64,000 nucleotides of DNA, taken from contig JBGUPV010000155.1 in NCBI GenBank assembly GCA_045130455.1, forward strand, positions 22,890-86,889, read 5' to 3'. A program made the position numbers and the translations under genes. The notes beneath the pieces are model-generated. The model did not search any database and was not told the origin of the DNA. It worked only from the letters and a program-made list of their open reading frames with translations. Position 1 is the first letter of the stretch. The number at the start of each line of letters is the position of its first letter. This DNA comes from Lachnospiraceae bacterium (lineage in GTDB: Bacteria; Bacillota; Clostridia; Lachnospirales; Lachnospiraceae). Below, piece after piece: positions 2,552 to 56,069 of this stretch.

Positions 2552-2566
2552 GAAAAACTTCCTCCG

Positions 2567-4771: not shown

Positions 4772-4783
4772 CCTGACTCCCTC

Positions 4784-6724: not shown

Positions 6725-6889
6725 AAATTCACCCCGTTATTTCCACCACTTCAGAAAAGCGGAAACACCTTGACGACGCATGATCTCCCCCAAGATCTCC
6801 ATGCCCCGCCAAGGCTCCGTACTGTTCTCCCGGAACTTCATCCCGGGATCGGCCTGATCCATACTCCCCAAGGCCCCACACTAAGCTGC

Positions 6890-13433: not shown

Positions 13434-13455
13434 AATTCTCCCCCTGTTTCTTATT

Positions 13456-14760: not shown

Positions 14761-14781
14761 AGTAATCCTCTCCGAAACACA

Positions 14782-16149
14782 TCAATAGTAGGTGTATTCG
14801 TACTCGTAGGAATCCTCTGGAATCCATTTTCCGTCTTCGTCAAACTTAGAAACTTTGACTACATTTTGGTGTTCATCAAACTCTTCGATTTCTGTCTGCC
14901 AACCGTAGTGATACGTCATTCTCTTCATAATATCCCCGTTGGAATCAAAGACCGAGTCAACAGTTGTCTCCCTCTCCCGGATAAGCGCTCCGTCGGAAGC
15001 CCCATCTACCGTTTTTTCAACATACTCATATACCCGAAAACAACCAACATTACCAGAACGCGAATCCGATTCTTGTCCATCCAGATAAAAGCTTTCATAC
15101 TTCGGCACAAGGTTTCCGTCACTATCTTTACTCATCACGGTTCGGATATTCACCTTTCTGTTCGGTACCGAACTGTCCTCGACGCCCCATCGGTATTCAA
15201 ATGCAGTATTGACAACTCCATTGTCATGGAATTCCGTCTCTCTGATCATTCTTCCCTGATCATCGTACAAATACTCTCTGTAGCAATACATTTTCCCATC
15301 ATTGTCTGCACGTAAATACACCTCTTCAATCATCACCCCGGCTGTGTTGTACTTATACCGGGTTTCGGACGTGACTTTGCCTTCATCATCCCTACTCAGC
15401 TCAGCAACACAGTGTCCCTGTTCATCATACTCAAGCACTTCTTCATAGTAAGCGCCGTCAGAAGGATCGGTTACAACAACTCGTATCGGACGTCCGTTCT
15501 CATCATAGTACCACTCCTCTTCGCTTTGAATCTGTTCCGAGTAATCTTCACCTTTTCCATAATCGTAGCTGATCCTCTTTCCATCCTGAAAGTTCGATTC
15601 GTACAAAACCCTGTAATGATCACCATACCTCGAATCAAATTCTTTATGAAAAATCGTATGGCCGAATTGATCGTATTGACACTCACGAATAATCTGAAGC
15701 TCACCCTCCAGGCTTGTATACAGATTAATTTGACACAATTCTCTGTCAGAATCCCCGTCATAGACAGGCAACAAACTGGAATATTCCTCACCTTCCGGAC
15801 CAAAACTCTCTGCCCAATAGAATACTTGTCTGTCAAGATCATCGTACATCCACCGTTTTTCATAACCCGATCCATCGTCATCATACCGAACGTTCTCACG
15901 GATTTTTCTCCCTTTTGAATCCAGATCCACTTCGGTCACACTAATCAGGACTCGCTTTCCGTTCTCGTCAAACTCATAGCTTTTATAATCATAACTGCCG
16001 GGGAGCCGCTTATTCAGCTCCGCAGCGTTCTCCTGCAAATTCTCCTGTGAGCTCCCCTTTTTCGACGATCCGGAGCACGACGAAAGAAGTGCCGCTGCAA
16101 GCAGCGTCACCGCAAGTGAAAGGGTCATTTTCCGAAGGGGGTGCGTCAT
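14782..16149 (-). CDS. YD/RHS-repeat-like lipoprotein (family member 3)
   Basis: ATG at 16147-16149; the track starts one codon earlier on TTG. Signal peptide RKMTLSLAVTLLAAALLSSC. Repeats: YDENGRPIRVV, EYDEQGHCVAELS, LYDDQGRMIRETE, FDSNGDIMKRMT. C-terminus YEYEYTYY. Confidence 0.8.
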   Translation of the reverse strand: MTHPLRKMTLSLAVTLLAAALLSSCSGSSKKGSSQENLQENAAELNKRLPGSYDYKSYEFDENGKRVLISVTEVDLDSKGRKIRENVRYDDDGSGYEKRWMYDDLDRQVFYWAESFGPEGEEYSSLLPVYDGDSDRELCQINLYTSLEGELQIIRECQYDQFGHTIFHKEFDSRYGDHYRVLYESNFQDGKRISYDYGKGEDYSEQIQSEEEWYYDENGRPIRVVVTDPSDGAYYEEVLEYDEQGHCVAELSRDDEGKVTSETRYKYNTAGVMIEEVYLRADNDGKMYCYREYLYDDQGRMIRETEFHDNGVVNTAFEYRWGVEDSSVPNRKVNIRTVMSKDSDGNLVPKYESFYLDGQESDSRSGNVGCFRVYEYVEKTVDGASDGALIRERETTVDSVFDSNGDIMKRMTYHYGWQTEIEEFDEHQNVVKVSKFDEDGKWIPEDSYEYEYTYY

Positions 16150-31999: not shown

Positions 32000-32024
32000 A
32001 GGCGCCGGAGCAGGTCCGGCGCCT
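32000..32024 (-). other. perfect 10-bp GC-rich hairpin between the NADAR-Macro gene and proC (no U-tract)
   Basis: AGGCGCCGGA-GCAGG-TCCGGCGCCT. On the minus strand it is followed by TGGAAAATAC, so it is not a canonical terminator. It may be a partial terminator or an RNA-stability element. Confidence 0.5.
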
Positions 32025-32033
32025 CGATCAAAC

Positions 32034-35000
32034 TCAGTTCTTTCCGCTCAGGATCTCGCGGTACATGGTAAATGTCCGCTCGTCCGCGCTCACAAAGATT
32101 ACCTTGATATTGTAATCCGGATGTCTGCGCATCCAGTTCTGAACCGTCTTGCTCGCCACCATGGTCGCCGCACGGAGCGGGTATCCGAAATATCCGGTGG
32201 AGATCGGCGGGAACGCGATCGAATGCAGGTCGTAGCGGACCGCGAGATTGAGGCAGTTCTCGTAGCACATCGTGAGGTAGACCGGATCGGTGTCGTCGCC
32301 GGAATACTTCGGTCCCACGGTATGGATGACGAACTGCGCCTTCAGGCGGTAGCCGCGGCTGATCTTTGCCCGGCCGACATCGCATCCCTTGAGTGCAGCG
32401 CACTCGCGCATCAGCTCCGGACCGCCGGCCTTGAGGATCGTATTGTCCACGCCCGGTCCGCCGAGCAATGTATTGTTGGTCGCGTTGACAATGGCATCGC
32501 AATCCATTGCCGCGATATTTCCTCTCTTGATGACGATCTCGCTTCGGATCTCGTCTCGGTATGTCGGTGCCTTGGCCTGTGCAGGCTCCGGCGCGGGTTT
32601 CTGCTCCGGCGTGGGCTCTGCCGCCTTCTTCGGCTGCTCCGTCACGGCTTCCGCAGGCTTGACTGAAGTCTTCTTCACAGTCTCCGCTGCGTCCGGCTGC
32701 TCCGCGGGCTTTGCCGCTGCCTTGGCCGCCTTCTTGGAAGCCGCCGAGCGCGAGAGCATCGATGCTTCCGCCGCCGTCTTCTCTGCGGCTGCCTTTGCTT
32801 CCGCTTCGGCTTTCTCCTTCGCCGCTTTCTCTTTCGCAGCCTTCTCCGCCGCTGCCTTCTCGGCCTTGGCTTTCTCCTTCGCGGCCTTCTCCGCCGCTGC
32901 CCTTGCCTCTGCCTCGACCTTCTCCCTCGCGGCTTTCTCCTTCGCAGCCTTCTCCGCTGCGGTCTTCTCAGCCGCGGCCTTTGCCTCCGCTGCCGCCTTG
33001 GCCTCCGCCGCTTCCGCTGCCGCCTTCGCCGCCTTTGCTTCCGCTGCTGCCTTCGCCTCCGCGAGCTTTGCTTCCGCTGCCGCTGCCTTAGCCTCCGCTG
33101 CCTTTGCTTCCGCCGCAGCCTTTGCTTCCGCTGCCTTCGCTTCCGCCGCAGCCTTTGCTTCCGCTACCTTCGCCGCCGCTGCCGCCTTGGCTTCCTCGGC
33201 CTTGGCTTTCGCTGCTGCAGCCTTTGCCTCCGCAGCCTTTGCCTCCGCAGCCTTTGCTTCCGCTGCTGCCGCTGCTGCCTCCGCTGCTGCCGCCTTGGCT
33301 TCCGCAGCCTCTTTCTCCGCTGTCTTCGTCGCGGCTGCGACTTCCGGACTTTCCGCGGTCTCGGCTGTATTCTCTTCCGTCACGCCCGATCCGGCAGCTT
33401 CCGCTGCCCCGGGCGCCTCACCTGCTTCTTCGTTTTCCGCCGGTTTCGCAACATTTTCCCCGGCAAGTGCTTCGTCCCCGGCAGCCGCTTCATTCTCCGC
33501 TGTGGGACCATCCGTCTTCCCGGCAGGTGCCTCCGCGGCATCCCCGGCCGCCGCCTCTTCCTCACCGCTTTCAGCCGCCGCAGGTTCTTCCGCTGCTACC
33601 TCAGCCGCCATCACCGGCTCATCCACGATCTCGATGGTCGCGGCTGCGACGCCGGATCCTTCAACCGGAATATCCTCATTTTCCGAAGGAAGGGTCTCAT
33701 CATAGCGAACGACGACTTCCTCGTCCTCCTCGGGACCGTCCACGATCTCGAACTCTACCGGCCGGATCGTCTCCGGAACGGACTCCGTCGCATCCGGCGT
33801 GATCTCTGCCTCGCTCACGCCCTCCGACGCGAACTCGCGCATCGACTGCCAGCCGAAGCCGCTCTCGCTGCCCACCGACGACGAGCCGATGTTGGTCGCA
33901 AGCTCCTCGTCGTCGCGCCTCACGCGGAAATCCAGGTCGAGCTCCGGCTCCTCCGGGACAAACGAAACATATGTCTCGGGCGCGGACGTCGTGCCGGGAT
34001 CGGTCGAAGCCGCATATGCCTCGCCGTACCCGAAGTCCTCGCGCGGACGGAACGTAAACGAAATATGCTCCTCCTGCGTATCCTCCGCCTCTTCCTCGTA
34101 CGTCTCCGTGTCGGGAAGGGTATCCTCGAACAGACCGTCCTCGCGGTTGATCTGATCCAGCAAAGCGCTTGGATTGCGCAGCCCGCCCTGGTAGCGGATC
34201 ATGTCAAATAAATCCTGCTTCATCTCAAAGAAGCCGGCCTTCGGAAGCCCCGCGCTCTTACCGCTGCGAAGCATCCACTCCAGTTCCTCAAACGTATAGT
34301 TGGCTACATTGAGGTCCTCGTACGAACGACCGCGGCGAAGGGCGTACAGCACCGCCTCCATCCACGTCGAAACGATCTCCGAAACATACGGCAGCATGCA
34401 CGCTTCCGTGATGCGCATGTTCCAGACGGACTCGCTCTCATCCGCACCGCCGTCGGCGTTCTCGGTTGCGTCCAGCGAGAGGTCGTACGCCGACTCCCCG
34501 CCGATCGAAGCCATCACGCTCCTGCGGATGCGGTCCGTCTCCTCGCTGTCGTTCCGCCGGCCGACCTTGACCGGCTGCGGCGCACGAAGATCCACCGCGT
34601 CAACATATGTCGTAACCGAGGATCCGGCCACGGCGCACCATGCCCGAAGGTCCTCGCGGACACGCATCAGCGTACGGCCGAGAATGTTGCGGCCTTTCCA
34701 CTCCTTCGGATCCGAGCTTCGCGAATCCTCCACGTCCAATCCGACACCCCACACGAGATCGCGCGGCGTGCATTCCGCGAGCAGAGCGTTGCCCGTGTCG
34801 AGCAGCGCCAGCAAAAGCTCCGGATTCTGCTGGAATTTGGCACGGATGCCCCTGCGCAGTATCTGCAGGCGCACGGATTTCCAAAGCGCGTCGTTGTAAC
34901 GCGCCACCTTGTTGCCGAGTTCCTTGATCCGCGGAAGTTCCTTCGTCTCCATGATCTCGTCCGCGATCTCGATGTCGCCGAAGATCATCGCTTTCTGGAA

Positions 35001-35123
35001 CATCATATACTGTTCCACGGAATGGTACACGCGCCCCGCATACATGAAATCTGCGGGATACCAGTTGCTCAGGTACCCGTTCGCATCTTCCGGATCATAG
35101 AACCGGATAACCCCATTGGTCAT
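32034..35123 (-). CDS. NADAR (YbiA/DUF1768) - helical repeat - Macro domain fusion protein
   Basis: The start is placed at the ATG at 35121-35123 (MTNGVIRFYDPEDANGYLSNWY), which has GAGGAGAG directly upstream. NADAR motifs: YHSVEQYMMFQKA, DLVWGVGL, GRNILGRTLMRVR. A central Ala/Glu/Lys repeat of about 230 aa follows. C-terminal Macro motifs: DAIVNATNNTLLGGPGVDNTILKAGG and IAFPPISTGYFGYP. Confidence 0.88.
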   Translation of the reverse strand: MTNGVIRFYDPEDANGYLSNWYPADFMYAGRVYHSVEQYMMFQKAMIFGDIEIADEIMETKELPRIKELGNKVARYNDALWKSVRLQILRRGIRAKFQQNPELLLALLDTGNALLAECTPRDLVWGVGLDVEDSRSSDPKEWKGRNILGRTLMRVREDLRAWCAVAGSSVTTYVDAVDLRAPQPVKVGRRNDSEETDRIRRSVMASIGGESAYDLSLDATENADGGADESESVWNMRITEACMLPYVSEIVSTWMEAVLYALRRGRSYEDLNVANYTFEELEWMLRSGKSAGLPKAGFFEMKQDLFDMIRYQGGLRNPSALLDQINREDGLFEDTLPDTETYEEEAEDTQEEHISFTFRPREDFGYGEAYAASTDPGTTSAPETYVSFVPEEPELDLDFRVRRDDEELATNIGSSSVGSESGFGWQSMREFASEGVSEAEITPDATESVPETIRPVEFEIVDGPEEDEEVVVRYDETLPSENEDIPVEGSGVAAATIEIVDEPVMAAEVAAEEPAAAESGEEEAAAGDAAEAPAGKTDGPTAENEAAAGDEALAGENVAKPAENEEAGEAPGAAEAAGSGVTEENTAETAESPEVAAATKTAEKEAAEAKAAAAEAAAAAAEAKAAEAKAAEAKAAAAKAKAEEAKAAAAAKVAEAKAAAEAKAAEAKAAAEAKAAEAKAAAAEAKLAEAKAAAEAKAAKAAAEAAEAKAAAEAKAAAEKTAAEKAAKEKAAREKVEAEARAAAEKAAKEKAKAEKAAAEKAAKEKAAKEKAEAEAKAAAEKTAAEASMLSRSAASKKAAKAAAKPAEQPDAAETVKKTSVKPAEAVTEQPKKAAEPTPEQKPAPEPAQAKAPTYRDEIRSEIVIKRGNIAAMDCDAIVNATNNTLLGGPGVDNTILKAGGPELMRECAALKGCDVGRAKISRGYRLKAQFVIHTVGPKYSGDDTDPVYLTMCYENCLNLAVRYDLHSIAFPPISTGYFGYPLRAATMVASKTVQNWMRRHPDYNIKVIFVSADERTFTMYREILSGKN
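32770..33330 (-). repeat. in-frame GC-rich coding repeats (about 21-nt units) encoding (AEAKAAA)n / (EKAAK)n
   Basis: Runs such as gcctttgcttccgccgcagcc and gcctttgcttccgctgccttc recur throughout. The minus-frame translation is ...AEAKAAEAKAAEAKAAAAKAKAEEAKAAAAAKVAEAKAAAEAKAAEAKAAAEAKAAEAKAAAAEAKLAEAKAAAEAKAAK.... Boundaries are approximate. Confidence 0.8.
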
Positions 35124-35187
35124 ATTCTCTCCTCTTCCGGTCATGCGGCCGTTTCCCCATGAAATTGCCGACAAGTCCCTTTCTGCT

Positions 35188-35216
35188 ATTGTACCGCAGG
35201 AAGCGCGAGTTATCAA
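35188..35216 (-). promoter_or_regulatory. sigma-70-type promoter of the NADAR-Macro gene
   Basis: Minus strand: TTGATA (rc of 35211-35216), a 17-nt spacer, then TACAAT (rc of 35188-35193). It lies directly after the upstream terminator. Confidence 0.6.
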
Positions 35217-35218
35217 GC

Positions 35219-35249
35219 AAAAAAGAGCCCTCGGCAGTGCCGGGGCCCT
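35219..35249 (-). terminator. intrinsic terminator after the acyl-ACP thioesterase gene
   Basis: Minus strand: GGGCCCCGG-CACTG-CCG(A)GGGCTC, a 9-bp stem with one bulge, followed by TTTTTTG. Confidence 0.65.
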
Positions 35250-36054: not shown

Positions 36055-37734
36055 TTACGCCTGCGCGTTCGCGCTCTTCATCTCGTCCTCGTGACGGATC
36101 TGCGCACGCTTGATCTTGCCGCCCAACGTCTTCGGAAGCTCATCGACGAACTCCACGATACGCGGGTACTTGTACGGCGCGGTCATCTTTTTTACGTGGT
36201 TCTGAAGCTCCTTGATGAGCTCGTCCGAAGGCGTGTAGCCCTTTGCGAGCACGACGGTCGCCTTGACCACCTGGCCGCGGATCGGGTCGGGCGCCGCGGT
36301 GATGGCGCACTCCACGACCGCCGGATGCGCAACAAGCGCACTCTCGACCTCGAAAGGTCCGATGCGGTAGCCGGAGCATTTGATAACGTCGTCGTGACGG
36401 CCGACGAAGCGGCAGTAACCGTCGTTGTCACGCCATGCAACGTCCTTCAGGTTATAATTTCCGCCGGCAAATGCCTCGTCCGTCTGCTCTTTATTCTTGT
36501 AATATCCGATGAACAATCCGATCGGATGATGATCGATGACATCGCAGATCGTGATCTCGCCCTCCGCACCGGGCTCCACTTCCTTGCCGTCCATCATCAG
36601 CTTGATGTCGTAGATCGGCGAAGGCTTGCCCATGGCGCCGGGGATCGGCTCGAACCACGGATAATCCGCGAAGAGTACCGTACCCTCGGTCTGGCCGAAG
36701 CCGGTGTGGATCTTGCCGCCCGTGAGCGCAAGCCAGCGGTCAAATACGTCCGCGTTCAGCGGCTCGCCGGCCGTCGCGAAATTCTGAATGCTTGAAAGGT
36801 CGTAGCTCGCCACATCCTCCTGGAGCATGAAGCGGTACATCGTCGGCGGCGCGCAGAACGTCGTCAGCTTGTATTTGGCCATCATCTCAAGAAGCTTCGC
36901 GGGCTTGAACTTGATCATGTCGTACGCAAAGATCGTGGCGCCGCAGATCCACTGTCCGTAGATCTTGCCCCATCCGAACTTCGCCCAGCCGGAGTCGGAC
37001 ACGCTCATGTGAAGCTTGCCCTCCTGCACCTGCTGCCAGTATTTTGCGGTCACGATGTGCCCCAGAGGATGGTGGTAGTTGTGCGTTACCATCTTCGGCA
37101 TGCCCGTCGTTCCCGACGTAAAATAAATCTGCATGATGTCGGTGCCCTTCGTGCGGTCGTCGCCCGTGGGCTTCGCCAGCACGTCGGAGCATCTGTCCAT
37201 CTCCGCATTGAAATCGATCCAGCCCTCACGCTGAACGTTGTCAACCACGGCGAGATACTTCACGCCCGGCATCTCGGGTTTTGCCATCTCCATCTGCGAC
37301 ATGACATACTCGTCGTCGACGCAGACAAACATCTTCACATCCGCCGCGTTGGCGCGGTAGACGATATCCTTCTTCGTAAGCTGAAGCGTGCCCGGAATGA
37401 TGATGATACCGAGCTTGATGAGCGCCGTCGCGCATACCCAGTACTCCCAGCGTCTCCGGAGGATCAGCATCACGACGTCGCCGCGCTGCAGTCCCAGGGA
37501 TTTAAAGAAGTTGGCCGCCTTGTTCGAAAGCCGGCTCATCTCCGCGAATGTGAACGACTTCTCGAGGCCTGTGTCGTCGCACCACAGAAGCGCGCGCAGG
37601 TCGGGCTTTTCCTCCGCCCAGCCGTCCACGATGTCCCAGCCGAAGTTGAAATACTCGGGTGCATTTACCGTATAATTCTTCTTGAAATCCTCGTACGAGT
37701 CAAACTCGATGCGAGGGAGATACCGCTCCAACAT
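36055..37734 (-). CDS. AMP-forming acyl-CoA synthetase (medium-chain acyl-CoA ligase-like)
   Basis: 559 aa. AMP-binding signature YFTSGTTGMPKMV. Later blocks TGFGQTE, GDVAWRDNDGYCRFVGRHDDVIKCSGYRIGPFEVE and the C-terminal LPKTLGGKIKR. Confidence 0.9.
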   Translation of the reverse strand: MLERYLPRIEFDSYEDFKKNYTVNAPEYFNFGWDIVDGWAEEKPDLRALLWCDDTGLEKSFTFAEMSRLSNKAANFFKSLGLQRGDVVMLILRRRWEYWVCATALIKLGIIIIPGTLQLTKKDIVYRANAADVKMFVCVDDEYVMSQMEMAKPEMPGVKYLAVVDNVQREGWIDFNAEMDRCSDVLAKPTGDDRTKGTDIMQIYFTSGTTGMPKMVTHNYHHPLGHIVTAKYWQQVQEGKLHMSVSDSGWAKFGWGKIYGQWICGATIFAYDMIKFKPAKLLEMMAKYKLTTFCAPPTMYRFMLQEDVASYDLSSIQNFATAGEPLNADVFDRWLALTGGKIHTGFGQTEGTVLFADYPWFEPIPGAMGKPSPIYDIKLMMDGKEVEPGAEGEITICDVIDHHPIGLFIGYYKNKEQTDEAFAGGNYNLKDVAWRDNDGYCRFVGRHDDVIKCSGYRIGPFEVESALVAHPAVVECAITAAPDPIRGQVVKATVVLAKGYTPSDELIKELQNHVKKMTAPYKYPRIVEFVDELPKTLGGKIKRAQIRHEDEMKSANAQA

Positions 37735-38509: not shown

Positions 38510-40162
38510 TTAATTCTGCAGCATCGCCGAGATTCCCGGGATCAACTGCTTCTTTCTCGACACCAGCTTCGGCACTTCGCAGACATTTTCCGCGGCCTTC
38601 ACACCGAACGCCTCCTCGAGCACGTCCTTCGCGCCGTCGCCCGCGTACAGCACGCGCGAGGTCTCGGTCGTGATGTTCGTCAGCATGAAAAACAGCATGT
38701 TGATGTCGCTCTTGGACGCCATGCCGAGCAAAAACGGCTTCAGGCGCTCCTCGATGCCCGCGAGCTCGTCCGCGCTCATCGAGTTGATCTGCCCGACACC
38801 GAGTGTGATCGCGCCGATCTTGAATTTCTTGTAGTCCTGGTAGAAGATCTCCTCGGGCGAGCGCTCCGTGAGATGACTTCCGGCCGCAAACATCCGGCTC
38901 GCCAGCGCGTCCGTCTCGACGCCGGCGATCCCCGCAAGCGCAAGAGCCGCCCTCCGGTCGATCTCGGTGCACGTCGGCGAGTGGAACGCGAGCGTGTCCG
39001 AGAGGATCGCCGCGCACAGAAGCCCCGCGATATCCTTCGGGATCTCAACGCCCTGCTCCGTGTACATCAGATACACCAGCGTCGCCGTGCAGCCGAGCGG
39101 TTCGTTGCGGAAATACACCGGTTGGAACGTGCACATGCCGCCGATCCGGTGGTGATCGATGATCTCGAGGATGTCGGCCTCCTCAACGCCGTCCACCGCC
39201 TGCGCGGGTTCGTTGTGATCCACTAAGATCACCTGCTTGCGGCTCATATCCATGAGGTTCCGCCGGGAGATCGTCCCGCGGTAGATTCCCTTGTGATCAA
39301 GGATCGGGAAATCCCGGTTCCGGCGTTTTGCCATGACGTCGCGGATGCTGTCGATGTAATCGTCCGTGCGGAACGTGATCAGATTGTCCGTCGTCATGAA
39401 ATATCCGATCGGCATCGCAAGGTCGATCAGACGTGCAACGGTAAATGCGTCGTGCGGCGAGCTGATGATGATACAGCCGTGCTCCTCCGCGAGTCTGCGG
39501 ATCGTCACCGATACCTTCGCGCCCTCGCAGACGACGAGACAGGCCGCACCCATCTCGATCGCGCAGAGCTGCGACTCGTAGCGGTTGCCGAGGATGACCA
39601 GGTCGCCGGGCTTGATGTAATCCTCCATCAGATCCGGATTAGCCGCTGCGATCAGCACCTTGCCCTCGGTGTATCGCAATCCTTCGATCTTACCCGTGAC
39701 GAGCGTTCCGTCGAGCGTATCCAGAATATTTCCGTAAGGCGTTGCCGCCGCCGAGAGAATTCCCGAATCCGAGAGCTCCATCGCCGTCTTCGCGATGTCG
39801 CTGATCGTGATCAGACCGTCCAGATGCCCTTCCGCGTCGGTGATGCACAGTGTCACGACGTGGCTGTCCTGCATCATCAGCCAGGCGCGCTTTAAGGACA
39901 TGTCGCGATCCACGCCCTGCGTTTCACGGATATCGATATCCTTCACCTGCGTTCCGACATACTCGATGTAGTCGGGCGCCGCCACACCGAAGTGTTTCAG
40001 CACGTAAGCCGTCTCCGCGTTGATCTCACCGCAGCAACGCGGCACATGCTTCTTGCCGGTCTGCTTCTCCTTGAGCCACGCGTAGGCGATGGCCGAACAG
40101 ATCGAGTCCGTGTCCGGATTCTTGTGACCGATCACCAGTACTTTTTTCTCATGTGTCGTCAT
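38510..40162 (-). CDS. CBS-domain-containing family II (DHH/DHHA2) inorganic pyrophosphatase
   Basis: 550 aa with an AAGGAG RBS. DHH motifs: GHKNPDTDSICSAIAYA, VDHNE, IIDHHRIG. A CBS pair is inserted between them, and a DHHA2-type C-terminus is present. Confidence 0.85.
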   Translation of the reverse strand: MTTHEKKVLVIGHKNPDTDSICSAIAYAWLKEKQTGKKHVPRCCGEINAETAYVLKHFGVAAPDYIEYVGTQVKDIDIRETQGVDRDMSLKRAWLMMQDSHVVTLCITDAEGHLDGLITISDIAKTAMELSDSGILSAAATPYGNILDTLDGTLVTGKIEGLRYTEGKVLIAAANPDLMEDYIKPGDLVILGNRYESQLCAIEMGAACLVVCEGAKVSVTIRRLAEEHGCIIISSPHDAFTVARLIDLAMPIGYFMTTDNLITFRTDDYIDSIRDVMAKRRNRDFPILDHKGIYRGTISRRNLMDMSRKQVILVDHNEPAQAVDGVEEADILEIIDHHRIGGMCTFQPVYFRNEPLGCTATLVYLMYTEQGVEIPKDIAGLLCAAILSDTLAFHSPTCTEIDRRAALALAGIAGVETDALASRMFAAGSHLTERSPEEIFYQDYKKFKIGAITLGVGQINSMSADELAGIEERLKPFLLGMASKSDINMLFFMLTNITTETSRVLYAGDGAKDVLEEAFGVKAAENVCEVPKLVSRKKQLIPGISAMLQN

Positions 40163-40227
40163 GGGTGCTCAACTCCTTTATCATCCAACCGATATGGGCG
40201 GCAGGCTTGATCGCCATCCCTTACGTA

Positions 40228-40256
40228 AGTATAACAAATCCATAGGGAACGGTCAA
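40228..40256 (-). promoter_or_regulatory. sigma-70-type promoter of the pyrophosphatase gene
   Basis: Minus strand: TTGACC (rc of 40251-40256), a 17-nt spacer, then TATACT (rc of 40228-40233). Confidence 0.55.
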
Positions 40257-40457
40257 CGACGGAGCAGGGGTGTTTCGAGCGGAGCCGGTGTATCCCGTTC
40301 AACATCACCCTCCACTTTTCGAAGTCCTCCGTTTATAAAACCCTATTTCTTTTCTTTTGAAATGTTGTATACTAAACATAGCGGATTATCGCTTTATAAT
40401 ATATCAACCCAATGTCTTTTATTATCGTCTGTGCGGAAGGAGGTTCATGTTTCATAT

Positions 40458-42218
40458 ATGAAATCGCGCTTTTTTTCTTTATTTATGTCGTTTATCTTGT
40501 TTGTCACTTTTACCACACCTTATCTGACGTCCACCAACGCAAATCCATCTGATATAGTTTTTCGGTATAATGATGAAGATTTTATCGATGTAATTGTTAT
40601 TTTGCATGACATCCCAGAAGAAGCTATGTATGAATTGTTCTGCTCGCGTTATCCCGAAGAATATAAGCAATTCGTTTTTGTAAAGGAGAATACGGATCCA
40701 ATTCCAAATGAATTACTCGACGAATCTCTACTTGCATCTGCCTCCGACCATAAAAGACAGATTTACAGCGAGCTCTACCTTGAACAAAATATAACCTTTC
40801 TGCAAAAATACTCATCACAAGAAAACTGCATCTTTTTAAGCAAGTATTCACCCATGATTATCATGCGTATTCCCTTCGCCACTATTCATGAAATGGCTGA
40901 AGATGAAATGGTTTGCCAAATCACCGAATTTGTAGATGAACCCGGAAGCAGCAACAGCTTAAGCCTTGCGAACAACCTAACTCGAGCTAACTATGTGCGC
41001 GACACCTACGGGAACAGTGGTTCCGGTGTTAAAATTGGTATGTACGAAGTTAGTGGAGTTCCTGATGTCACTGATTCATCTCTGACTCAAGCCACTATCC
41101 ATAAACGATTAGGTACGGAACCCACGAACTCTCATGCCACAAAAATAGCGAGGATTATGGTTGGCTCCCCTTCTGGTTTCGCTCCAAATGCGATTCTCTA
41201 TTGTTGTAGCGGTAGTTCAAATGTGGATTTCTACACTGGAATTGAATGGCTAATTGATTCTGGGGTAAACGTGATAAATACCAGTGTCAATCTCGGCGAA
41301 GAAGGTACGTATGGACTGAAATCCCAATGGGTTGACCACATTGCTGTCAAGCACGATGTTCATTTTGTAACAACAGCTGGTAACATACCGACAGGTTCAC
41401 CCCTTTCTATCGAAATAACCGCCCCCGGGATGGCATATAACGCAATTACAGTCGGCGCTTTTGACCCTGGCTCTGCCACATCATGGTCGCAAGCGAATTG
41501 CTTTGATATGGCTTCATGGAGTCGTTATCAAGAATCCGGCTCCGAATACTCTGAAAAGCCAAACATCGCTGCCGATGGCGTAGATTTCTGGGACTCTAAC
41601 GGTACAAGTTTTGCTTCCCCGCAGGTTGCTGCAACAATTGCTCAATTGTGCAGTTATAATCTTGCTCTCCGATACAAGCAGACCTCAGTGGGTGCCATTC
41701 TGATGGCAAGTGCTGCAAGAAAAGCCACTTCGGTCTCTAATGGTTTTGTCGGAGATACTTTCGGGCCATCTCAGTGTGTTCCAGGTGGAAATCAGATAAG
41801 CGAATATGAAGGAGCTGGAGTCCTCGATTCTCGATGGGCTCGTGAGCTTGTCTCATCTTCTAACTACTGGTCTGCTACCGTTTACGACAATGGATTTCCA
41901 TACAATAAAACAGTCTCACTTACATCATCCTCCAATACTACCGTTCGAATTTGTGTTTTTTGGCTCCGCCAAAACAGTCTCTCGAACCACACCTCCGGGA
42001 ACATAACTGTTGACACAATTTCAAACCTTGACCTAAGTGTTTTCAACCCTTACGGAACCTGCGTAGCGACCTCTTCTACAATTCATTCGAATTTTGAGAT
42101 TGTTCAGTTTACACCGACGGTGAGTGGAAATTATACTATACGGATCACAGACATGGGTGGACATACAGGAAAGGATTACATAGGAATTGCACTATGGTCC
42201 GGAACAACTGGATCATAA
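40458..42218 (+). CDS. secreted subtilisin-like (S8) serine protease with N-terminal prodomain and C-terminal beta-sandwich domain; Glu at the catalytic Asp position
   Basis: The start is placed at the ATG at 40458 (MKSRFFSLFMSFILFVTFTTPYLTSTNA, a signal peptide), after GGAAGGAGG. The ORF-track start at 40161 reads through the divergent promoter region. S8 blocks: GSGVKIGMYEVSGVPD (Glu codon 41046-41048 where subtilisin has Asp32), SHATKIARIM (His codon 41133-41135), TTAGN (oxyanion Asn) and NGTSFASPQVAATIAQL (Ser codon 41607-41609). Confidence 0.85.
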   Translation: MKSRFFSLFMSFILFVTFTTPYLTSTNANPSDIVFRYNDEDFIDVIVILHDIPEEAMYELFCSRYPEEYKQFVFVKENTDPIPNELLDESLLASASDHKRQIYSELYLEQNITFLQKYSSQENCIFLSKYSPMIIMRIPFATIHEMAEDEMVCQITEFVDEPGSSNSLSLANNLTRANYVRDTYGNSGSGVKIGMYEVSGVPDVTDSSLTQATIHKRLGTEPTNSHATKIARIMVGSPSGFAPNAILYCCSGSSNVDFYTGIEWLIDSGVNVINTSVNLGEEGTYGLKSQWVDHIAVKHDVHFVTTAGNIPTGSPLSIEITAPGMAYNAITVGAFDPGSATSWSQANCFDMASWSRYQESGSEYSEKPNIAADGVDFWDSNGTSFASPQVAATIAQLCSYNLALRYKQTSVGAILMASAARKATSVSNGFVGDTFGPSQCVPGGNQISEYEGAGVLDSRWARELVSSSNYWSATVYDNGFPYNKTVSLTSSSNTTVRICVFWLRQNSLSNHTSGNITVDTISNLDLSVFNPYGTCVATSSTIHSNFEIVQFTPTVSGNYTIRITDMGGHTGKDYIGIALWSGTTGS

Positions 42219-42256
42219 ATGTGAAACGCTGTTGTATTGATAGGGAGGGTAATCGC

Positions 42257-43441
42257 ATGAATAACCGCTTTTCAACCTTAAGAACAATTCTTGCATTGAC
42301 GTCACTGGTGCTTCTTCTGAGTTCCTGTGGCAACAACCAACAAAAAGTGGAAGATAGTCCGACGCCGTCCGTTACCGCCATTTTGGCAACATCGACACCG
42401 TCGATCGCGGAAAAAAACGCAACGCCGTCAATCACGGAAAATGATCCGACACCATCACCTAATATGCCTGCCAAGGATCCGAACCGCAAATTGGAATCAA
42501 TCCTCATGTCCAGTGGGAATCCTTCCGACATCGTGGCCGTAGAAATCCTGTTCAACGTAGATCCGTGGGAGGAAGCCGATGAAGTCTTCAAAACAGAATA
42601 CCCTTCCCTATACCGTCTTTGGGCAGAAGTAAGGGAAAGCAGCGACCGTGATCCCAAACCGGACCGAACCGCAGAAATTACAGAAGCATTTGAACTGAGA
42701 GCCAAATTGCCTTCCATTTGCTTCGAGCGAAGGATCACCTCGTTTTTATCCAGACATTCGGAGCTCTCTGACAAGGTCATTCCCGATCTGTTCATGCAAT
42801 TTGCAGTTTACGTGTCCCGGGATCGATTAACCGAACTGGTCGCGGATGAAGATGTTTCCGGGATCATCCAATTCGAAGATCCTCACTCGCAGTCTGAACC
42901 GATCATCGTTGCTGTCACGGAAGGCCATCGGGTATATGACGGACCGAAGGTCGAAGAGTTTTCCAACGATGACTTATGTGAAGCGGGCGAGGTCAACTAC
43001 AGAATGTTTTCTATCGAGCAGACTCTCGCTTCCGCAGACGAAGAGGATCTTTTTCGTGTGATCATCAAGCCTCTCCTTCCTTGGTCGATATACGACAAAT
43101 GGCTGGAGGACCATTTTGAATTCGAAGAAAAGACATACTCGGAATGGATGAACGAACTTGCTCCGGAAGATGAAAAACTCGCTGAGATCTTTGACGCCTT
43201 TATCAAATGGAAAAACAATCCTCAGACCTCCGAGGCGGTTCGGATCTATATGGATGAACTCAGCGGCGAAGCCATGTCACATCTTCTCGGAGAATCACTG
43301 ACGGTCACCGCGAAGCACAAATCCTATATTTCGGCAACTGTAAGCAAAGCACAACTATCCGTACTTGCTCCCGGAGCTTTCGCATATGAGATCTACTGGG
43401 CAGATCAGGAAGAATACTATGCCAAGCGGCTCGGAGAGTAA
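42257..43441 (+). CDS. lipoprotein composed of two protease-prodomain-like (I9-like) repeats
   Basis: The start is placed at the ATG at 42257 after GGGAGGG. MNNRFSTLRTILALTSLVLLLSSC is a lipobox signal peptide. The first domain (GNPSDIVAVEILFNVDPWEEADEVFKTEYPSLY...LTELVADEDVSGIIQFEDP) aligns block by block with the protease N-terminus (NPSDIVFRYN..VIVILHDIPEEAMYELFCSRYPEEY...IHEMAEDEMVCQITEFVDEP). A second, more divergent copy follows. Confidence 0.75.
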   Translation: MNNRFSTLRTILALTSLVLLLSSCGNNQQKVEDSPTPSVTAILATSTPSIAEKNATPSITENDPTPSPNMPAKDPNRKLESILMSSGNPSDIVAVEILFNVDPWEEADEVFKTEYPSLYRLWAEVRESSDRDPKPDRTAEITEAFELRAKLPSICFERRITSFLSRHSELSDKVIPDLFMQFAVYVSRDRLTELVADEDVSGIIQFEDPHSQSEPIIVAVTEGHRVYDGPKVEEFSNDDLCEAGEVNYRMFSIEQTLASADEEDLFRVIIKPLLPWSIYDKWLEDHFEFEEKTYSEWMNELAPEDEKLAEIFDAFIKWKNNPQTSEAVRIYMDELSGEAMSHLLGESLTVTAKHKSYISATVSKAQLSVLAPGAFAYEIYWADQEEYYAKRLGE

Positions 43442-43541
43442 TTGTTTCGCGGTTGCTTTTTTCCCCGGCATGGTATATACTCTGGAATGATCCGCGCGAA
43501 TGCGCACCACCCGTCGAGTGGGATCAACAAGGAGTGCCGAT

Positions 43542-43883
43542 ATGCCTTTCTTCCGTGAACTGCCCGCAAAACTGATCCTTCTTCTGCACCTCATCCTCGG
43601 TGTTGTCACCGGCTGGTTCTTCGTGCAGGGTTTCAAGCTGATGCTCGGCCGCGTGTACGTCGGCGGCATCGCACAGAAAGGTTTGTTCTACCGGATCTGG
43701 GGACTTCAGCTCTCCACGTTCATCTTCATTCTCGTGTGGCTCATCGACCTGCGCGTCTGGAAGAAAAAGCGCACGCCGATGCCCCGCTCCCGCGCTACCG
43801 CGAAGGAGATCGGCCTGCTGTTCGCATCGATCCTGCTCTACGGAGTCGGCGCGGCTGCGATCAACATGATCCGTTTTCTTTGA
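43542..43883 (+). CDS. small membrane protein (113 aa, 3 predicted TM helices)
   Basis: ATG at 43542, 8 nt after AAGGAG. MPFFRELPAKLILLLHLILGVVTGWFFV... The track start at 43500 lacks an RBS. Confidence 0.6.
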   Translation: MPFFRELPAKLILLLHLILGVVTGWFFVQGFKLMLGRVYVGGIAQKGLFYRIWGLQLSTFIFILVWLIDLRVWKKKRTPMPRSRATAKEIGLLFASILLYGVGAAAINMIRFL

Positions 43884-43906
43884 TCTTTTTTCCGAAGCAT
43901 AACCGA

Positions 43907-43942
43907 AGCGGCGGACCCGTCAACACGGTCCGCCGCTTTTTC
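43907..43942. terminator. bidirectional intrinsic terminator between convergent genes
   Basis: GCGGCGGACC-cgtcaacac-GGTCCGCCGC followed by TTTTTC on the plus strand, with an A/T-rich flank on the other side. Confidence 0.75.
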
Positions 43943-43972
43943 TCTCTTCATTTTCCTCTTTTTATGAGACGA

Positions 43973-44527
43973 TCACTTGATCGCATCTCTCCAAGTCGCC
44001 GGCTTGAACTCGTGCAGGATCGGAAGAAGTCTCTGATCGACATCGATCTTGAGCACGGAGTTGAAGTTATTGGTCGCGATCATCTGTCCCGCAAAGCCTA
44101 CGATCACGACGATCTCGGGATCCGTAAAATACTTGTGAAGCTTGTCGAAGATCTCGTCCGAGACATCCGTCGGGTTCTTGACGATCGACTGCGCAAGGGA
44201 TACCAGCACCTGCTCCTTGTCATCGTACACAAGGTTGTGCGGATCGAGGCCGAGGCCCTTCACGTCGCTGATGAAAAACAGCGAGCACAGCTGGCACGAA
44301 TTCGTCGTAGAGATCGCGTGTGCATAGAGGACCGCGTCCTTCTCGCCGATCACCTCAACCAGACGGTTCCAGGATGTGTACCAGCCCATGTACGCGTCGT
44401 ACGTCGCCGCGTCGTTCAAAAGACCCTTTTTCATGTTCGTCACGGCGTTTCTTCCCGCCAGCTCGTCGTAGCGCACCTTTTCTGCGCCGGTTACTTCGTT
44501 CTGCTCTGTCAGATGAATTCTTGCCAT
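43973..44527 (-). CDS. carboxymuconolactone decarboxylase (AhpD-like) family protein
   Basis: 184 aa with an AAAGGAG RBS. CxxC motif in HAISTTNSCQLCSLFF, with the helical AhpD-like pattern. Confidence 0.65.
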   Translation of the reverse strand: MARIHLTEQNEVTGAEKVRYDELAGRNAVTNMKKGLLNDAATYDAYMGWYTSWNRLVEVIGEKDAVLYAHAISTTNSCQLCSLFFISDVKGLGLDPHNLVYDDKEQVLVSLAQSIVKNPTDVSDEIFDKLHKYFTDPEIVVIVGFAGQMIATNNFNSVLKIDVDQRLLPILHEFKPATWRDAIK

Positions 44528-56068: not shown

Positions 56069-56069
56069 C

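Follow-up and report, generated by a model that had tools for sequence, protein, structure and literature searches.

We propose that a rumen or gut Lachnospiraceae bacterium encodes a single cytoplasmic polypeptide with two heads for processing ADP-ribose (ADPr) adducts, an N-terminal NADAR domain and a C-terminal Macro domain, and that its cognate transferase is not encoded nearby. This is the function suggested in the initial annotation of the DNA, and we hold it with moderate confidence. Both heads belong to one 1029-aa open reading frame (ORF 32034-35123, minus strand) in the window, by which we mean the whole 64-kb stretch of DNA that was analysed. All of the motifs quoted in that annotation are present in the translated ORF.

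The ORF runs from an ATG at 35123-35121 to a TGA at 32036-32034, and the frame is open 5' of the ATG as far as a TTG at 35216. We place the start at the ATG and not at the TTG because the orthologous proteins begin at the equivalent methionine and because a ribosome-binding site lies just upstream of the ATG (Table 1). The gene had been credited with its own promoter, and a promoter-like site does stand upstream of this single ORF; a scan of the whole region returned 2 such sites, against 0.6±0.6 in shuffled sequence. The GC-rich hairpin and T-run farther upstream, which the terminator scanner did not list, is likely to be a terminator that insulates the gene from upstream transcription. Downstream, proC starts 91 nt from the stop.

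Table 1. Features of the NADAR-Macro gene and its flanks (positions in the window).
Feature	Position	Strand	Remarks
GC-rich hairpin + T-run (aagggccccggcactgccgagggctctttttt)	35219..35249	-	read by eye; 3' of the upstream acyl-ACP thioesterase gene
Promoter-like site TTGATA-17 nt-TACAAT	35188..35216	-	10/12 matches, consensus match only; ~65 nt upstream of ATG
Ribosome-binding site GGAAGAGGAGAG	35127..35138	-	ends 4 nt upstream of ATG 35123
NADAR core, YbiA type, aa 1-165	34629..35123	-	E37, K44, E117, D122, W125
Variable low-confidence insert, aa 166-232	34428..34628	-	between NADAR core and C-terminal extension (CTD); pLDDT 45-73
Conserved helical CTD, aa ~233-332	34128..34427	-	predicted helices, pLDDT 84-92
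Acidic disordered region, aa 333-600	33324..34127	-	pLDDT < 50
Ala/Glu/Lys-rich single long helix, aa 601-798	32730..33323	-	AlphaFold2 prediction, pLDDT 76-87
Pro/Lys/Ala/Glu-rich disordered connector, aa 799-857	32553..32729	-	pLDDT 25-49
MacroD-derived Macro domain, aa 858-1029	32037..32552	-	N880, N883, G888-G889-P890-G891, D893, L897, F979
Perfect 9-bp GC hairpin (GGCGCCGGA-cctgc-TCCGGCGCC)	32001..32023	-	read directly; 10 nt past the stop; without a strong T-run

The ORF is a single gene rather than a chimera made in assembly, because 14 species-level Lachnospiraceae MAGs carry the same ORF in a conserved housekeeping synteny (HTH-cupin, AMP-ligase, acyl-ACP thioesterase, the NADAR-Macro gene, and proC). 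NADAR and Macro share one uninterrupted frame in all 14 complete loci, and the 525 linker codons contain 0 stops in the coding frame (the other two forward frames have 9 and 12), so the early concern that two genes had been joined by an assembly error was not borne out. Its inheritance in this housekeeping neighbourhood of rumen/gut Lachnospiraceae is vertical.

The assignment of the N-terminus as a NADAR was confirmed by an HMM search (Pfam PF08719 at aa 8-160, E = 2.9e-44, 151.7 bits against a cutoff of 35.1). Sequence searches of the PDB matched P. nicotianae NADAR (8bau, 6e-20) and E. coli YbiA (2b3w, 1.9e-12), and the model of this domain is confident, with TM-scores of 0.76 (8BAU) and 0.78 (2B3W). 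E37, K44, and E117 align with E43, K50, and E125 of P. nicotianae NADAR, for which the roles of the residues have been described (PMC11543638). Of the 13 residues that contact ADP-ribose, 12 are identical, and those are invariant in 14 orthologues; the sole change is at the pyrophosphate-contacting R79, which is N71 here and R, K, or H in the orthologues. Judging by these alignments, the catalytic residues are intact, and the loss that might have undone the initial reading is not seen in this head. The last strand carries the YbiA-type Glu and not the Asp variant that is typical of DarT1-associated NADARs. Hydrolysis of guanine-ADPr on DNA and RNA, and of cytidine-ADPr, has been published for NADARs (PMC11543638, PMC11125620, PMC11833690, PMC12945103), and guanine-ADPr is hydrolysed by every NADAR tested, including YbiA (PMC11125620). 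The domain is also a match to TIGR02464 ("riboflavin biosynthesis intermediates N-glycosidase") at 141.4 bits against a cutoff of 73.7, and a small-molecule substrate is possible for this head.

The region after the core had been called an unassigned globular region of about 130 aa. A globular part is indeed predicted, but it is about 100 aa (233-332) and follows a low-confidence insert of about 65 aa, in which a 50-aa alignment gap is filled by the window protein alone and partly by one database entry (P0001). Nor is it unassigned: it is a conserved helical C-terminal domain (CTD) specific to a rare NADAR subfamily. P245, E300, and Q303 are invariant, Y254, L293, P294, D307, and R310 are nearly so, and the characteristic motif is GLP..GF.EMKQD..D..R. 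Of 1.84 billion representative proteins, the CTD is confined to only 120 clusters, and it follows a NADAR by about 20 aa in every match that has a NADAR. It had no match in Pfam, the PDB, or the viral structures of BFVD, and a set of 50,697 phage records did not contain it.

The C-terminal head had been described as a textbook Macro domain. It is a Macro domain (Pfam PF01661 at aa 879-989, E = 1.3e-35, 122.3 bits against a cutoff of 22), and the PDB entries that match it best are those of MacroD1 and MacroD2 (the top one is human MacroD1, 2x47, 1.4e-39), but it is not textbook: P890 occupies the position of the catalytic-water glycine (G37 of O. iheyensis MacroD, or OiMacroD), and L897 that of the His of the His/Asp dyad. 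Catalytic residues are thus partly lost in this head, although it retains Asn880, Asn883, Asp893, and the second loop (STGYFGYP). The score of the domain does not reach any of the NCBIfam Macro equivalog cutoffs. Both substitutions are found across the whole fused clade. At the dyad His position, the close clade has Leu, Val, or Met and the distant one has Tyr or Phe; the distant orthologues also have S/T for the Asn92-equivalent, a SIGKG loop, and two fewer loop glycines. As the next-closest homologues have Gly (110/115) and His (113/115) at these positions, the changes are derived ones that belong to the fused clade alone. The nearest stand-alone Macro homologues (56-58% identity) have the canonical GGGGVDGAIH motif. 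The domain descends from MacroD/YmdB-type hydrolases without being a standard one; it very probably still binds ADP-ribose, and as a "second eraser head" it may be inactive.

Between the heads, the acidic region (net charge −55 over aa 330-560) holds short islands (EEHIxFxF, DPGTTSAPETY, IGSSSV, and W..MR) that are conserved in the 7 closest orthologues. The helical spacer that follows had been put at about 230 residues. AlphaFold2 predicts one uninterrupted 198-residue helix (~29 nm if fully helical), and no heptad periodicity was found over aa 596-790; the size must be reduced to 196-198 aa (596/601-798). This segment is 56% Ala, 19% Lys, and 18% Glu with 2.6% large hydrophobics, and it contains 23 K(i)-E(i+4) pairs, versus 7.2±2.1 in shuffles. 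It cannot be called a conserved rigid spacer, as stretches of ~270 and ~60 disordered residues (pLDDT < 50) lie on either side of the helix and orthologues have unrelated sequence in its place ((DEDDS)n, E/A/T-rich, PEKA-rich, or P/A-rich). Orthologue linkers range from 135 to 534 aa and are of unrelated low-complexity composition, with only 20-33% of the linker positions aligned to an identical residue, as compared to 75-85% in the domains. The pTM of the AlphaFold2 model is 0.41. Because both length and sequence vary and the helix is predicted to be flanked by long disorder, we view the linker as a fast-evolving tether and not a conserved ruler; it would be unable to set a fixed distance.

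Fusions of this kind recur. Macro fusions of NADAR-CTD occur in either domain order and involve two Macro subtypes, and NADAR-CTD is also joined to microbial PARG. For the closest NADAR cores, the fusion partners are ARH, KptA/Tpt1, and DUF3990, which belongs to the Pfam ART clan (PMC7955679). The two-headed architecture is therefore less unusual than first thought, as tandem NADAR+Macro proteins are already known from viruses (PMC9503650) and further fusions, of either domain order, occur in bacteria. Among stand-alone NADAR loci, 9 of 30 form a DUF3990-x-NADAR candidate defence module (PDC-M42); stand-alone NADAR-CTD genes had no conserved partner gene. The earlier statement that no ADP-ribosyltransferase is nearby agrees with a Pfam scan of window ORFs of at least 100 aa, which found no ART-clan, sirtuin, or other NAD-consuming domain. 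No target of the protein was identifiable in the window.

We propose that the NADAR core and CTD together form a likely N-glycosidase head, as suggested by the activity of other NADARs, and that it would free nucleobases (guanine N2, possibly cytidine) of ADP-ribose in DNA or RNA. Because two near-invariant active-site positions are changed, the Macro domain would be either a weakened or re-specialised esterase (for ester- or phosphate-linked ADPr, or O-acetyl-ADPr) or, for the most part, a reader of ADP-ribose that keeps the protein attached to modified substrates. The tether of ~525 residues (acidic disorder, a helix of ~200 residues, and Pro/Lys-rich disorder) would keep the heads on one chain with their distance unfixed. 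Most plausibly, the protein would be a standing safeguard that protects against, or repairs, the ADP-ribosylation caused by toxins of phages, of competitors, or of the cell's own systems.

A first alternative differs from this explanation solely in the role of the Macro domain, which would be an anchor on ADP-ribose without hydrolase activity, with the long flexible tether concentrating NADAR-CTD on ADP-ribosylated nucleic acid or protein. We consider this possible, if doubtful. In OiMacroD, G37V (at the position of P890) lowers kcat from 0.48 to 0.13 s−1 (~3.7-fold) and gives the lowest de-MARylation activity, with the same Tm shift and binding kept (PMC5413906). The replacement of the dyad His, the further losses in the distant clade, and the restriction of these changes to the fused clade point the same way. 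However, the two Asn, the Asp, and the second loop are all present in the window protein, and MacroD-type enzymes without a complete His/Asp dyad remain active, by a mechanism that is thought to be substrate-assisted (PMC7050489). Also, the Macro identity of 76-85% among close orthologues fits continued selection, possibly on catalysis.

A second alternative, which we find unlikely, is metabolite damage control unrelated to macromolecular ADP-ribosylation: NADAR would act, like E. coli YbiA, as a hydrolase of reactive intermediates of the riboflavin pathway, and Macro would clear O-acetyl-ADP-ribose or ADP-ribose-1''-phosphate. The TIGR02464 score, the YbiA-type Glu, and the stable housekeeping neighbourhood, which is not a defence island, would fit. 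So would the AMP-forming acyl-CoA synthetase that adjoins the gene, as a lead only; this class of enzymes is regulated by sirtuins, which generate O-acetyl-ADPr. But riboflavin genes were not found near the gene, its relatives are fused to PARG, ARH, KptA, and the ART-clan DUF3990 and not to riboflavin enzymes, and the Macro changes strike exactly the residues used in O-acetyl-ADPr hydrolysis. Furthermore, the tested NADARs, YbiA among them, all hydrolyse guanine-ADPr (PMC11125620).

Third, the protein could be a trans-acting antidote or regulator of one specific ART system elsewhere in the genome (for example DUF3990/PDC-M42-like, DarT-like, or Rhs-borne), and thus an antitoxin or immunity protein instead of a general eraser. 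This seems quite improbable: PDC-M42A and B homologues were not found in the 64-kb window, the conserved neighbours are metabolic genes, and the Asp variant typical of DarT1-associated NADARs is absent. The NADAR core does match PADLOC PDC-M42C (6e-56), but its 187 bits are well below the 287 bits of a genuine member. In favour of such a role, related stand-alone NADARs sit in DUF3990-x-NADAR operons, DarT1-NADAR and YarT-YbiA are established toxin-antitoxin pairs (PMC11543638, PMC11125620), and phages are known to have orphan NADARs that resemble antitoxins (PMC11825919).

Finally, it is very improbable that NADAR-CTD and Macro genes were joined by repeat mis-assembly or that Macro alone is real: NCBI annotates only a 267-aa Macro protein on an orthologue contig (from an internal Met, with no protein-coding gene listed in the 2.1 kb upstream), several short database entries are Macro-only or NADAR-only with frameshifted-looking tails (P0001, P0032), and the exact window protein has no record elsewhere, but the 14 MAG assemblies are independent and have differing linkers, the DNA repeats are imperfect (59-82% matches at long periods), so that repeat collapse is unlikely, and the unannotated 2.1 kb encodes a NADAR (E ~1e-85 to the window protein), which implies that the 267-aa call is a truncation. 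The Macro product may also be translated separately.

Our preferred reading of an ADPr-adduct processor has a close parallel in the tandem NADAR+Macro proteins of DNA viruses, whose two domains are interpreted by the authors who described them as having distinct ADP-ribose linkages for targets (Iyer, Burroughs, Anantharaman & Aravind 2022, PMC9503650). There too, both heads are on one polypeptide, so the fusion itself is already known; in contrast, the window gene is cellular, chromosomal, and vertically inherited, and its protein has the subfamily-specific CTD as well as a ~525-aa hypervariable linker and an altered Macro catalytic loop, the latter two of which are not described in that paper. 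The guanine-ADPr hydrolases P. nicotianae NADAR and E. coli YbiA share the fold, the catalytic Glu/Lys/Glu, and 12 of 13 ADPr contacts (R79 of the former being Asn here), but they stand alone (~160-190 aa), whereas the window protein adds a ~100-aa helical CTD and Macro. The fold extensions that have been described are N-terminal (PMC11125620), and this one is C-terminal.

In the DarT1-NADAR (DarTG1) and YarT-YbiA pairs, NADAR reverses base ADP-ribosylation. The window locus has no adjacent transferase and is neither mobile nor a defence island, and it has Glu where DarT1-linked NADARs have Asp (D171-type). Compared to PDC-M42 (DUF3990, a small protein, and a 158-aa NADAR), the NADAR core is homologous, but components A and B are lacking and CTD, linker, and Macro are extra. 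The Macro domain shares the two Asn residues, the Asp, and the second loop with MacroD-type enzymes (human MacroD1/2, E. coli YmdB, and O. iheyensis MacroD), but it has Pro for the third loop glycine and Leu for the dyad His.

The predicted helix resembles designed (EAAAK)n linkers, Ala-based Marqusee-Baldwin helices, and ER/K helices in its Ala/Glu/Lys composition, its enriched i/i+4 opposite-charge pairs, and its lack of a hydrophobic heptad. Classical ER/K single alpha-helices are mostly charged, whereas this one is 56% Ala and only 39% charged. The helix favours K(i)-E(i+4) over E(i)-K(i+4) pairs, is unconserved among orthologues, and has long disordered flanks, and so would impose no fixed distance between the heads.

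A Pfam profile search of the window protein recovered both domains that the initial annotation had recognized, NADAR and Macro, in one open reading frame, and gave no further match at E ≤ 1. The proposed layout of the protein also holds, and only the segment sizes needed small corrections (see table). Upstream of the ATG, the frame is open as far as a TTG at 35216. The ATG at 35123 is the likely start because a GGAAGAGGAGAG ribosome-binding site lies 4 nt upstream and because orthologous proteins begin at the equivalent methionine. By exact-sequence look-up, with candidate starts that give 1029, 1036, or 1060 amino acids, we found neither an identical protein nor an independent assembly of the same linker repeat. 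We modeled the protein with AlphaFold2 at full length (27-sequence alignment, mean pLDDT 65.9, pTM 0.41), and aa 1-336 separately (pLDDT 85.8, pTM 0.83).

Features of the NADAR-Macro gene and its product, with linker types among orthologues (L-numbers, genomic loci; P-numbers, database proteins)
Feature	Position	Strand	Details
NADAR-Macro ORF	ATG 35123-35121 to TGA 32036-32034	-	1029 aa
Promoter-like site TTGATA-17-TACAAT	35216-35188	-	10/12 consensus matches
GC hairpin and T-run	5' of promoter-like site	-	seen in sequence
Perfect 9-bp hairpin	3' of stop codon	-	seen in sequence
NADAR (PF08719)	aa 8-160		E=2.9e-44; 151.7 bits vs cutoff 35.1; profile positions 2-163 of 163
Macro (PF01661)	aa 879-989		E=1.3e-35; 122.3 bits vs cutoff 22
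Folded NADAR and extension	aa 1-332		high confidence (AlphaFold2)
Acidic disordered region	aa 333-602		pLDDT below 50; net charge -55 over aa 330-560
Single unbroken helix	aa 601-798		pLDDT 76-87 (AlphaFold2)
Pro/Lys/Ala-rich disordered stretch	aa 799-857		pLDDT below 50
Folded Macro domain	aa 858-1029		mixed confidence, pLDDT 60-96
Linker, window protein			acidic region, then Ala/Glu/Lys helix
Linker, L002 and L004			(DEDDS)n; net charges -187 and -155
Linker, L001, L003, L005			Glu/Ala/Thr-rich
Linker, L008			PEKA-rich
Linker, L009-L016 and P0003			Pro/Ala-rich, then conserved ~90-aa charged helix (IIAKAKAEEAAA...AAKYRAEQMKAMAQAAFERA)

It had been allowed that this ORF might be two genes joined by an assembly error in the repeat. 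We reject this explanation despite the short gene calls in public databases. A survey of one genome per GTDB species gave 80 loci, and 14 of these (L001-L005 and L008-L016) have complete single-frame ORFs with NADAR, the extension, and Macro (595-1008 aa). All 14 are from rumen or gut Lachnospiraceae MAGs. Also, the 525 linker codons of the window contain 0 stops in the coding frame, as compared to 9 and 12 in the other two forward frames, and the linker's DNA repeats are only 59-82% alike.

As for the public gene calls, on the contig of locus L008 (L082 2894-5000, JAFZWG010000022.1) NCBI annotation reduces this gene to a "macro domain-containing protein" of 267 aa, whose start is an internal methionine. 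The 2.1 kb 5' of the annotated Macro, which encode NADAR, the extension, and the linker, have no listed protein-coding gene. Four near-identical proteins of the same family (P0182, P0184, P0185, and P0186) are also short Macro-only entries, and the ends of two metagenomic proteins (P0001 and P0032) look frameshifted. We read these entries as annotation or assembly truncations, although an additional internal start, at Met789 in the window protein, may give a separate Macro product. Thus, Macro-only listings hide the NADAR-Macro architecture in at least one public MAG and in four further entries.

In the close clade, the gene order is HTH-cupin regulator, AMP-forming ligase, acyl-ACP thioesterase, NADAR-Macro, and proC; the distant clade has the thioesterase on the opposite side of NADAR-Macro. 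In both clades, the ligase (36055-37734, minus strand) is adjacent or close to NADAR-Macro. Among the seven closest genomes in which it is retained, it is 95-97% identical, as compared to 75-85% for the NADAR and Macro domains and an essentially unalignable linker. A tie between the ligase and NADAR-Macro via sirtuin and O-acetyl-ADP-ribose is possible, but vertical inheritance can account for the shared synteny, so we keep it only as a lead.

The NADAR core (aa 11-160) was modeled with pLDDT 94-98 and has the NADAR fold, which is defined by five core helices with small sheets at their flanks. In a Foldseek search, it matched the P. nicotianae NADAR (8bau, E=8e-9, TMt 0.76) and E. coli YbiA (2b3w, TMt 0.78). 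The P. nicotianae structure has 13 residues that contact ADP-ribose (PMC11543638), and 12 of these are identical in the window protein (E37, K44, K67, G70, V73, Y76, D78, W81, R85, E117, D122, and W125). E37, K44, and E117 correspond to the catalytic E43, K50, and E125 and are invariant across all 14 orthologues, so careful alignment did not reveal the loss of catalytic residues that had been thought possible for this domain. In the window protein only, P. nicotianae R79 is replaced by N71 (adjoining K72); the orthologues have Arg, Lys, or His. The YbiA subfamily is marked by Glu, not Asp or His, at a conserved position in the last strand (PMC11125620, PMC11543638). Because P. nicotianae E125 and the Glu of YbiA are the counterparts of E117 in the alignment, we place the window NADAR in the YbiA subfamily and not in the DarT1-linked Asp type. 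Two residues before E117 there is Leu, not the Asp of the DarT1-associated (BC4488-type) antitoxins, which share an operon with DarT1, and no ART-clan Pfam domain was found in the window. NADARs cleave guanine-ADP-ribose on DNA and RNA and also cytidine-ADP-ribose (PMC11543638, PMC11125620, PMC11833690, PMC12945103).

The Macro domain had been described as a textbook one, which it is not: two near-invariant positions are altered. Its best matches in the PDB are human MacroD1 (1.4e-39) and MacroD2 (3.8e-37), and the domain retains N880, N883, D893, and the second loop (STGYFGYP). N883 and D893 correspond to the MacroD-type Asn (MacroD2 N92, O. iheyensis MacroD [Oi] N30) and Asp (D102, D40). However, the catalytic loop is GGPG instead of GGGG, with P890 in place of the glycine of the catalytic water (Oi G37), and L897 replaces the dyad His (MacroD2 H106, Oi H44). 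So, of the catalytic residues, the Asn and Asp are retained and the loop Gly and dyad His are not. Among the 115 next-closest homologues, 110 have Gly at the P890 position and 113 have His at the L897 position, and the closest stand-alone Macro proteins (56-58% identity) have the canonical GGGGVDGAIH. The fused clade has Pro, Asn, or Lys at the P890 position. More specifically, Pro or Asn stands at the Gly position and Leu or Met at the His position in the window protein and the five proteins most closely related to it, while the distant orthologues have the loop SIGKG and Tyr or Phe for the dyad His. The MacroD-type Asn is Thr in L008 and Ser or Thr in the distant clade. The NCBIfam equivalogs for O-acetyl-ADP-ribose deacetylase and protein-ADP-ribose hydrolase all scored below cutoff (the best was NF001664, with 156.6 bits vs 200). 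Because the best matches are MacroD1/2 and yet the domain has GGPG and L897 and falls below every equivalog cutoff, we consider it, from its sequence, a derived, non-textbook relative of MacroD. It likely binds ADP-ribose; whether it hydrolyzes it is uncertain. In Oi MacroD, G37V lowers kcat from 0.48 to 0.13 s-1 and leaves binding unaffected (PMC5413906), and MacroD enzymes are able to work without the full dyad (PMC7050489).

NADAR is followed by what had been called an unassigned globular region. Alignment, profile search, and AlphaFold2 identify it as a conserved helical C-terminal extension (CTD, aa ~233-332). An alignment of about 30 proteins, each of ~260 aa, extends across NADAR and an additional ~80-95 aa, in which P245, E300, and Q303 are invariant and Y254, L293, P294, D307, and R310 are nearly so; the hallmark motif is GLP..GF.EMKQD..D..R. 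A profile of the CTD matched only 120 clusters (E ≤ 1e-3) in 1.84 billion representative proteins. We checked the architecture of 88 matches: NADAR was present in 57, with the CTD ~20 aa after it in all 57, while 29 (mostly short) had the CTD only and 2 had no domain call. The CTD-only matches may be fragments or stand-alone proteins of ~105 aa. Eight CTD-only proteins (P0077, P0079, P0088, P0090, P0091, P0093, P0101, and P0114) have ~100-110 aa and a CTD that starts near residue 27-31, and these may be stand-alone proteins rather than fragments. Pfam has no model for the CTD, its profile gave only spurious designed-repeat matches to PDB sequences, a fold search of the NADAR and CTD model against PDB and BFVD matched the NADAR core alone, and none of 704 phage records with a NADAR match covered the CTD. 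Therefore, the CTD is a conserved extension that is specific to one NADAR subfamily. It is probably part of the substrate-recognition surface.

The Ala/Glu/Lys segment of the linker (aa 596-790) consists of 56% Ala, 19% Lys, and 18% Glu; large hydrophobics make up only 2.6%. It has 23 K(i)-E(i+4) pairs (vs 7.2±2.1 in shuffles), and its charges recur most strongly every 5.2-5.7 residues, with no peak at 3.5 or 7. A coiled coil is rejected, as these periods are absent and there are almost no large hydrophobics. AlphaFold2 predicts one helix at 601-798; this monomer model fits a single or a self-associating helix. The segment has the sequence properties of a single alpha-helix, namely great helix length, charged residues paired at i and i+4, and the absence of a hydrophobic core with heptad spacing. 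Given the few hydrophobics, the excess of K-E pairs, and the lack of a 3.5 or 7 period, we classify it, on composition and pattern, as a single-helix type. If fully helical, it would be about 29 nm long. However, it is not a conserved rigid spacer. The helix is unable to fix the distance between the two heads because long disordered stretches lie on both sides of it, and orthologues have other low-complexity sequence in its place. Because it is not conserved in orthologues, it does not seem to be functionally tuned. The linkers between CTD and Macro range from 135 to 534 residues in orthologues and have unrelated compositions. When the window protein is compared to its closest relatives, only 20-33% of the linker positions can be aligned as identical, vs 75-85% in the domains. 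Within the close clade there are conserved islands (EEHIxVxF, DPG(T/R)TSAPETY, TSIGS, and LW...R; aa ~340-455, window about 33750-34100), which may serve as linear motifs or form a segment that folds only under some conditions. One more conserved island, AAEAS.L.R, is found where the helix ends (aa ~783-792).

A second repeat-bearing protein is encoded at 51962-56131 (minus strand). This 1389-aa ORF has N-terminal transmembrane helices, Lys/Asp/Glu-rich stretches, and long (AAEEEARRAAE)n repeats, and it has no Pfam match. It shares a compositional signature with the NADAR-Macro linker (high GC and strong AT skew), which suggests that helical expansions of low complexity occur commonly in this lineage or genome. 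Elsewhere in the window, four adjoining large ORFs (464-8584, minus strand; 564-734 aa) have no Pfam or PADLOC match, except for a weak RHS-repeat match in 6890-8584, and may be a surface or polymorphic-toxin cluster. GC content is 0.45-0.50 at 12000-16000 and 40000-44000, vs 0.55-0.60 elsewhere, and these segments may be horizontally acquired; the second contains an S8 peptidase and two ORFs without a family match.

The initial annotation's statement that no ADP-ribosyltransferase is encoded nearby agrees with a Pfam scan of 41 window ORFs (20 of them without any Pfam match), which found no ART-clan, sirtuin, or other NAD-consuming domain. Similarly, when we clustered the neighbors of 30 NADAR-CTD loci (27 stand-alone and 3 Macro-fused), we found lineage synteny only: there was no ART-like gene, and the stand-alone genes had no conserved partner.

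Might such orphan NADARs act on riboflavin intermediates instead? The window NADAR does score above the cutoff of TIGR02464, a domain-level model for the riboflavin-intermediate N-glycosidase (141.4 bits vs 73.7). The fusions argue otherwise. Besides the same-order orthologues at 14 loci, our survey of domain orders found the reverse order, Macro-NADAR-CTD, with an alphavirus-like GVCGAIF Macro (P0039, P0061, L021, L031, and L046), and compact NADAR-Macro proteins of ~300 aa with a canonical Macro (P0204 and P0210). There is also a well-populated Macro-X-NADAR family of 481 aa (P0047-P0060). Its ~150-aa middle domain (…FTPQQMAALRRGNIPQEMEDKWFWFMEEDTLFAHRSWTG…) is unassigned, and its Macro has GVCGAIF, with Cys replacing the dyad Asp. 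Other fusions are PARG-NADAR-CTD (P0095), ARH-NADAR (P0046), NADAR-KptA/Tpt1 (P0063), and DUF3990-NADAR (P0035); this NADAR group also includes DUF6508-NADAR-CTD (P0158/P0082) and NADAR-CTD-RNA polymerase alpha CTD (P0087). Thus, cellular genomes have recurrent fusions of the NADAR-CTD module with other folds of ADP-ribose hydrolases. That NADAR-CTD is joined to two subtypes of Macro, in both orders, and to microbial PARG, with ARH on close cores, argues that orphan NADARs act on ADP-ribose adducts and not on riboflavin intermediates. Most likely, the role of NADAR-Macro, an orphan that is constitutively encoded, is to erase, or to read and erase, ADP-ribose adducts, its presumed substrates.

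A more detailed scenario, which we think has much less chance of being right, is that anaerobic gut bacteria have orphan proteins, multi-erasers or reader-erasers, built from an undescribed small NADAR subfamily whose mark is a conserved helical CTD with an invariant P...E..Q...D signature. The CTD would set a new substrate specificity; changes at two near-invariant catalytic positions would have made the MacroD-derived domain a reader of ADP-ribose or an enzyme that hydrolyzes another linkage; and a fast-evolving tether, hundreds of residues long, would hold the heads together for a standing cytoplasmic surveillance of several kinds of nucleic-acid ADP-ribosylation.

The two-headed architecture had been thought unusual. 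However, tandem NADAR and Macro proteins of viruses have already been described, with the interpretation that they act on different linkages (PMC9503650), so the fusion itself is not new, and bacterial fusions occur in both orders. As far as our searches show, four features are new. These are the subfamily with the conserved CTD, a tether that is very long and free of constraint, the replacement of two near-invariant residues in the Macro active site throughout the clade, and the truncated call of the gene in a public MAG annotation. The Ala/Glu/Lys helix, at ~200 residues, is a natural counterpart of the designed EAAAK linkers. PADLOC also has a candidate defense system with a NADAR, PDC-M42. 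The window NADAR matches its component C (6e-56), but we reject membership of the NADAR-Macro gene because components A (DUF3990) and B are absent from the window (tblastn, PADLOC) and because the score is well under those of genuine members. Such members account for 9 of 30 stand-alone NADAR loci, which have DUF3990, a small protein, and NADAR. In L027 (4857-6519) and 8 other loci, DUF3990, a 138-aa protein, and a ~160-aa NADAR correspond to PDC-M42 A, B, and C (5.7e-123, 5.3e-80, and 1.1e-86 for the L027-type module). As DUF3990 is a member of the Pfam ART clan (PMC7955679), this module looks like an uncharacterized ART-NADAR pair, analogous to DarT1-NADAR.
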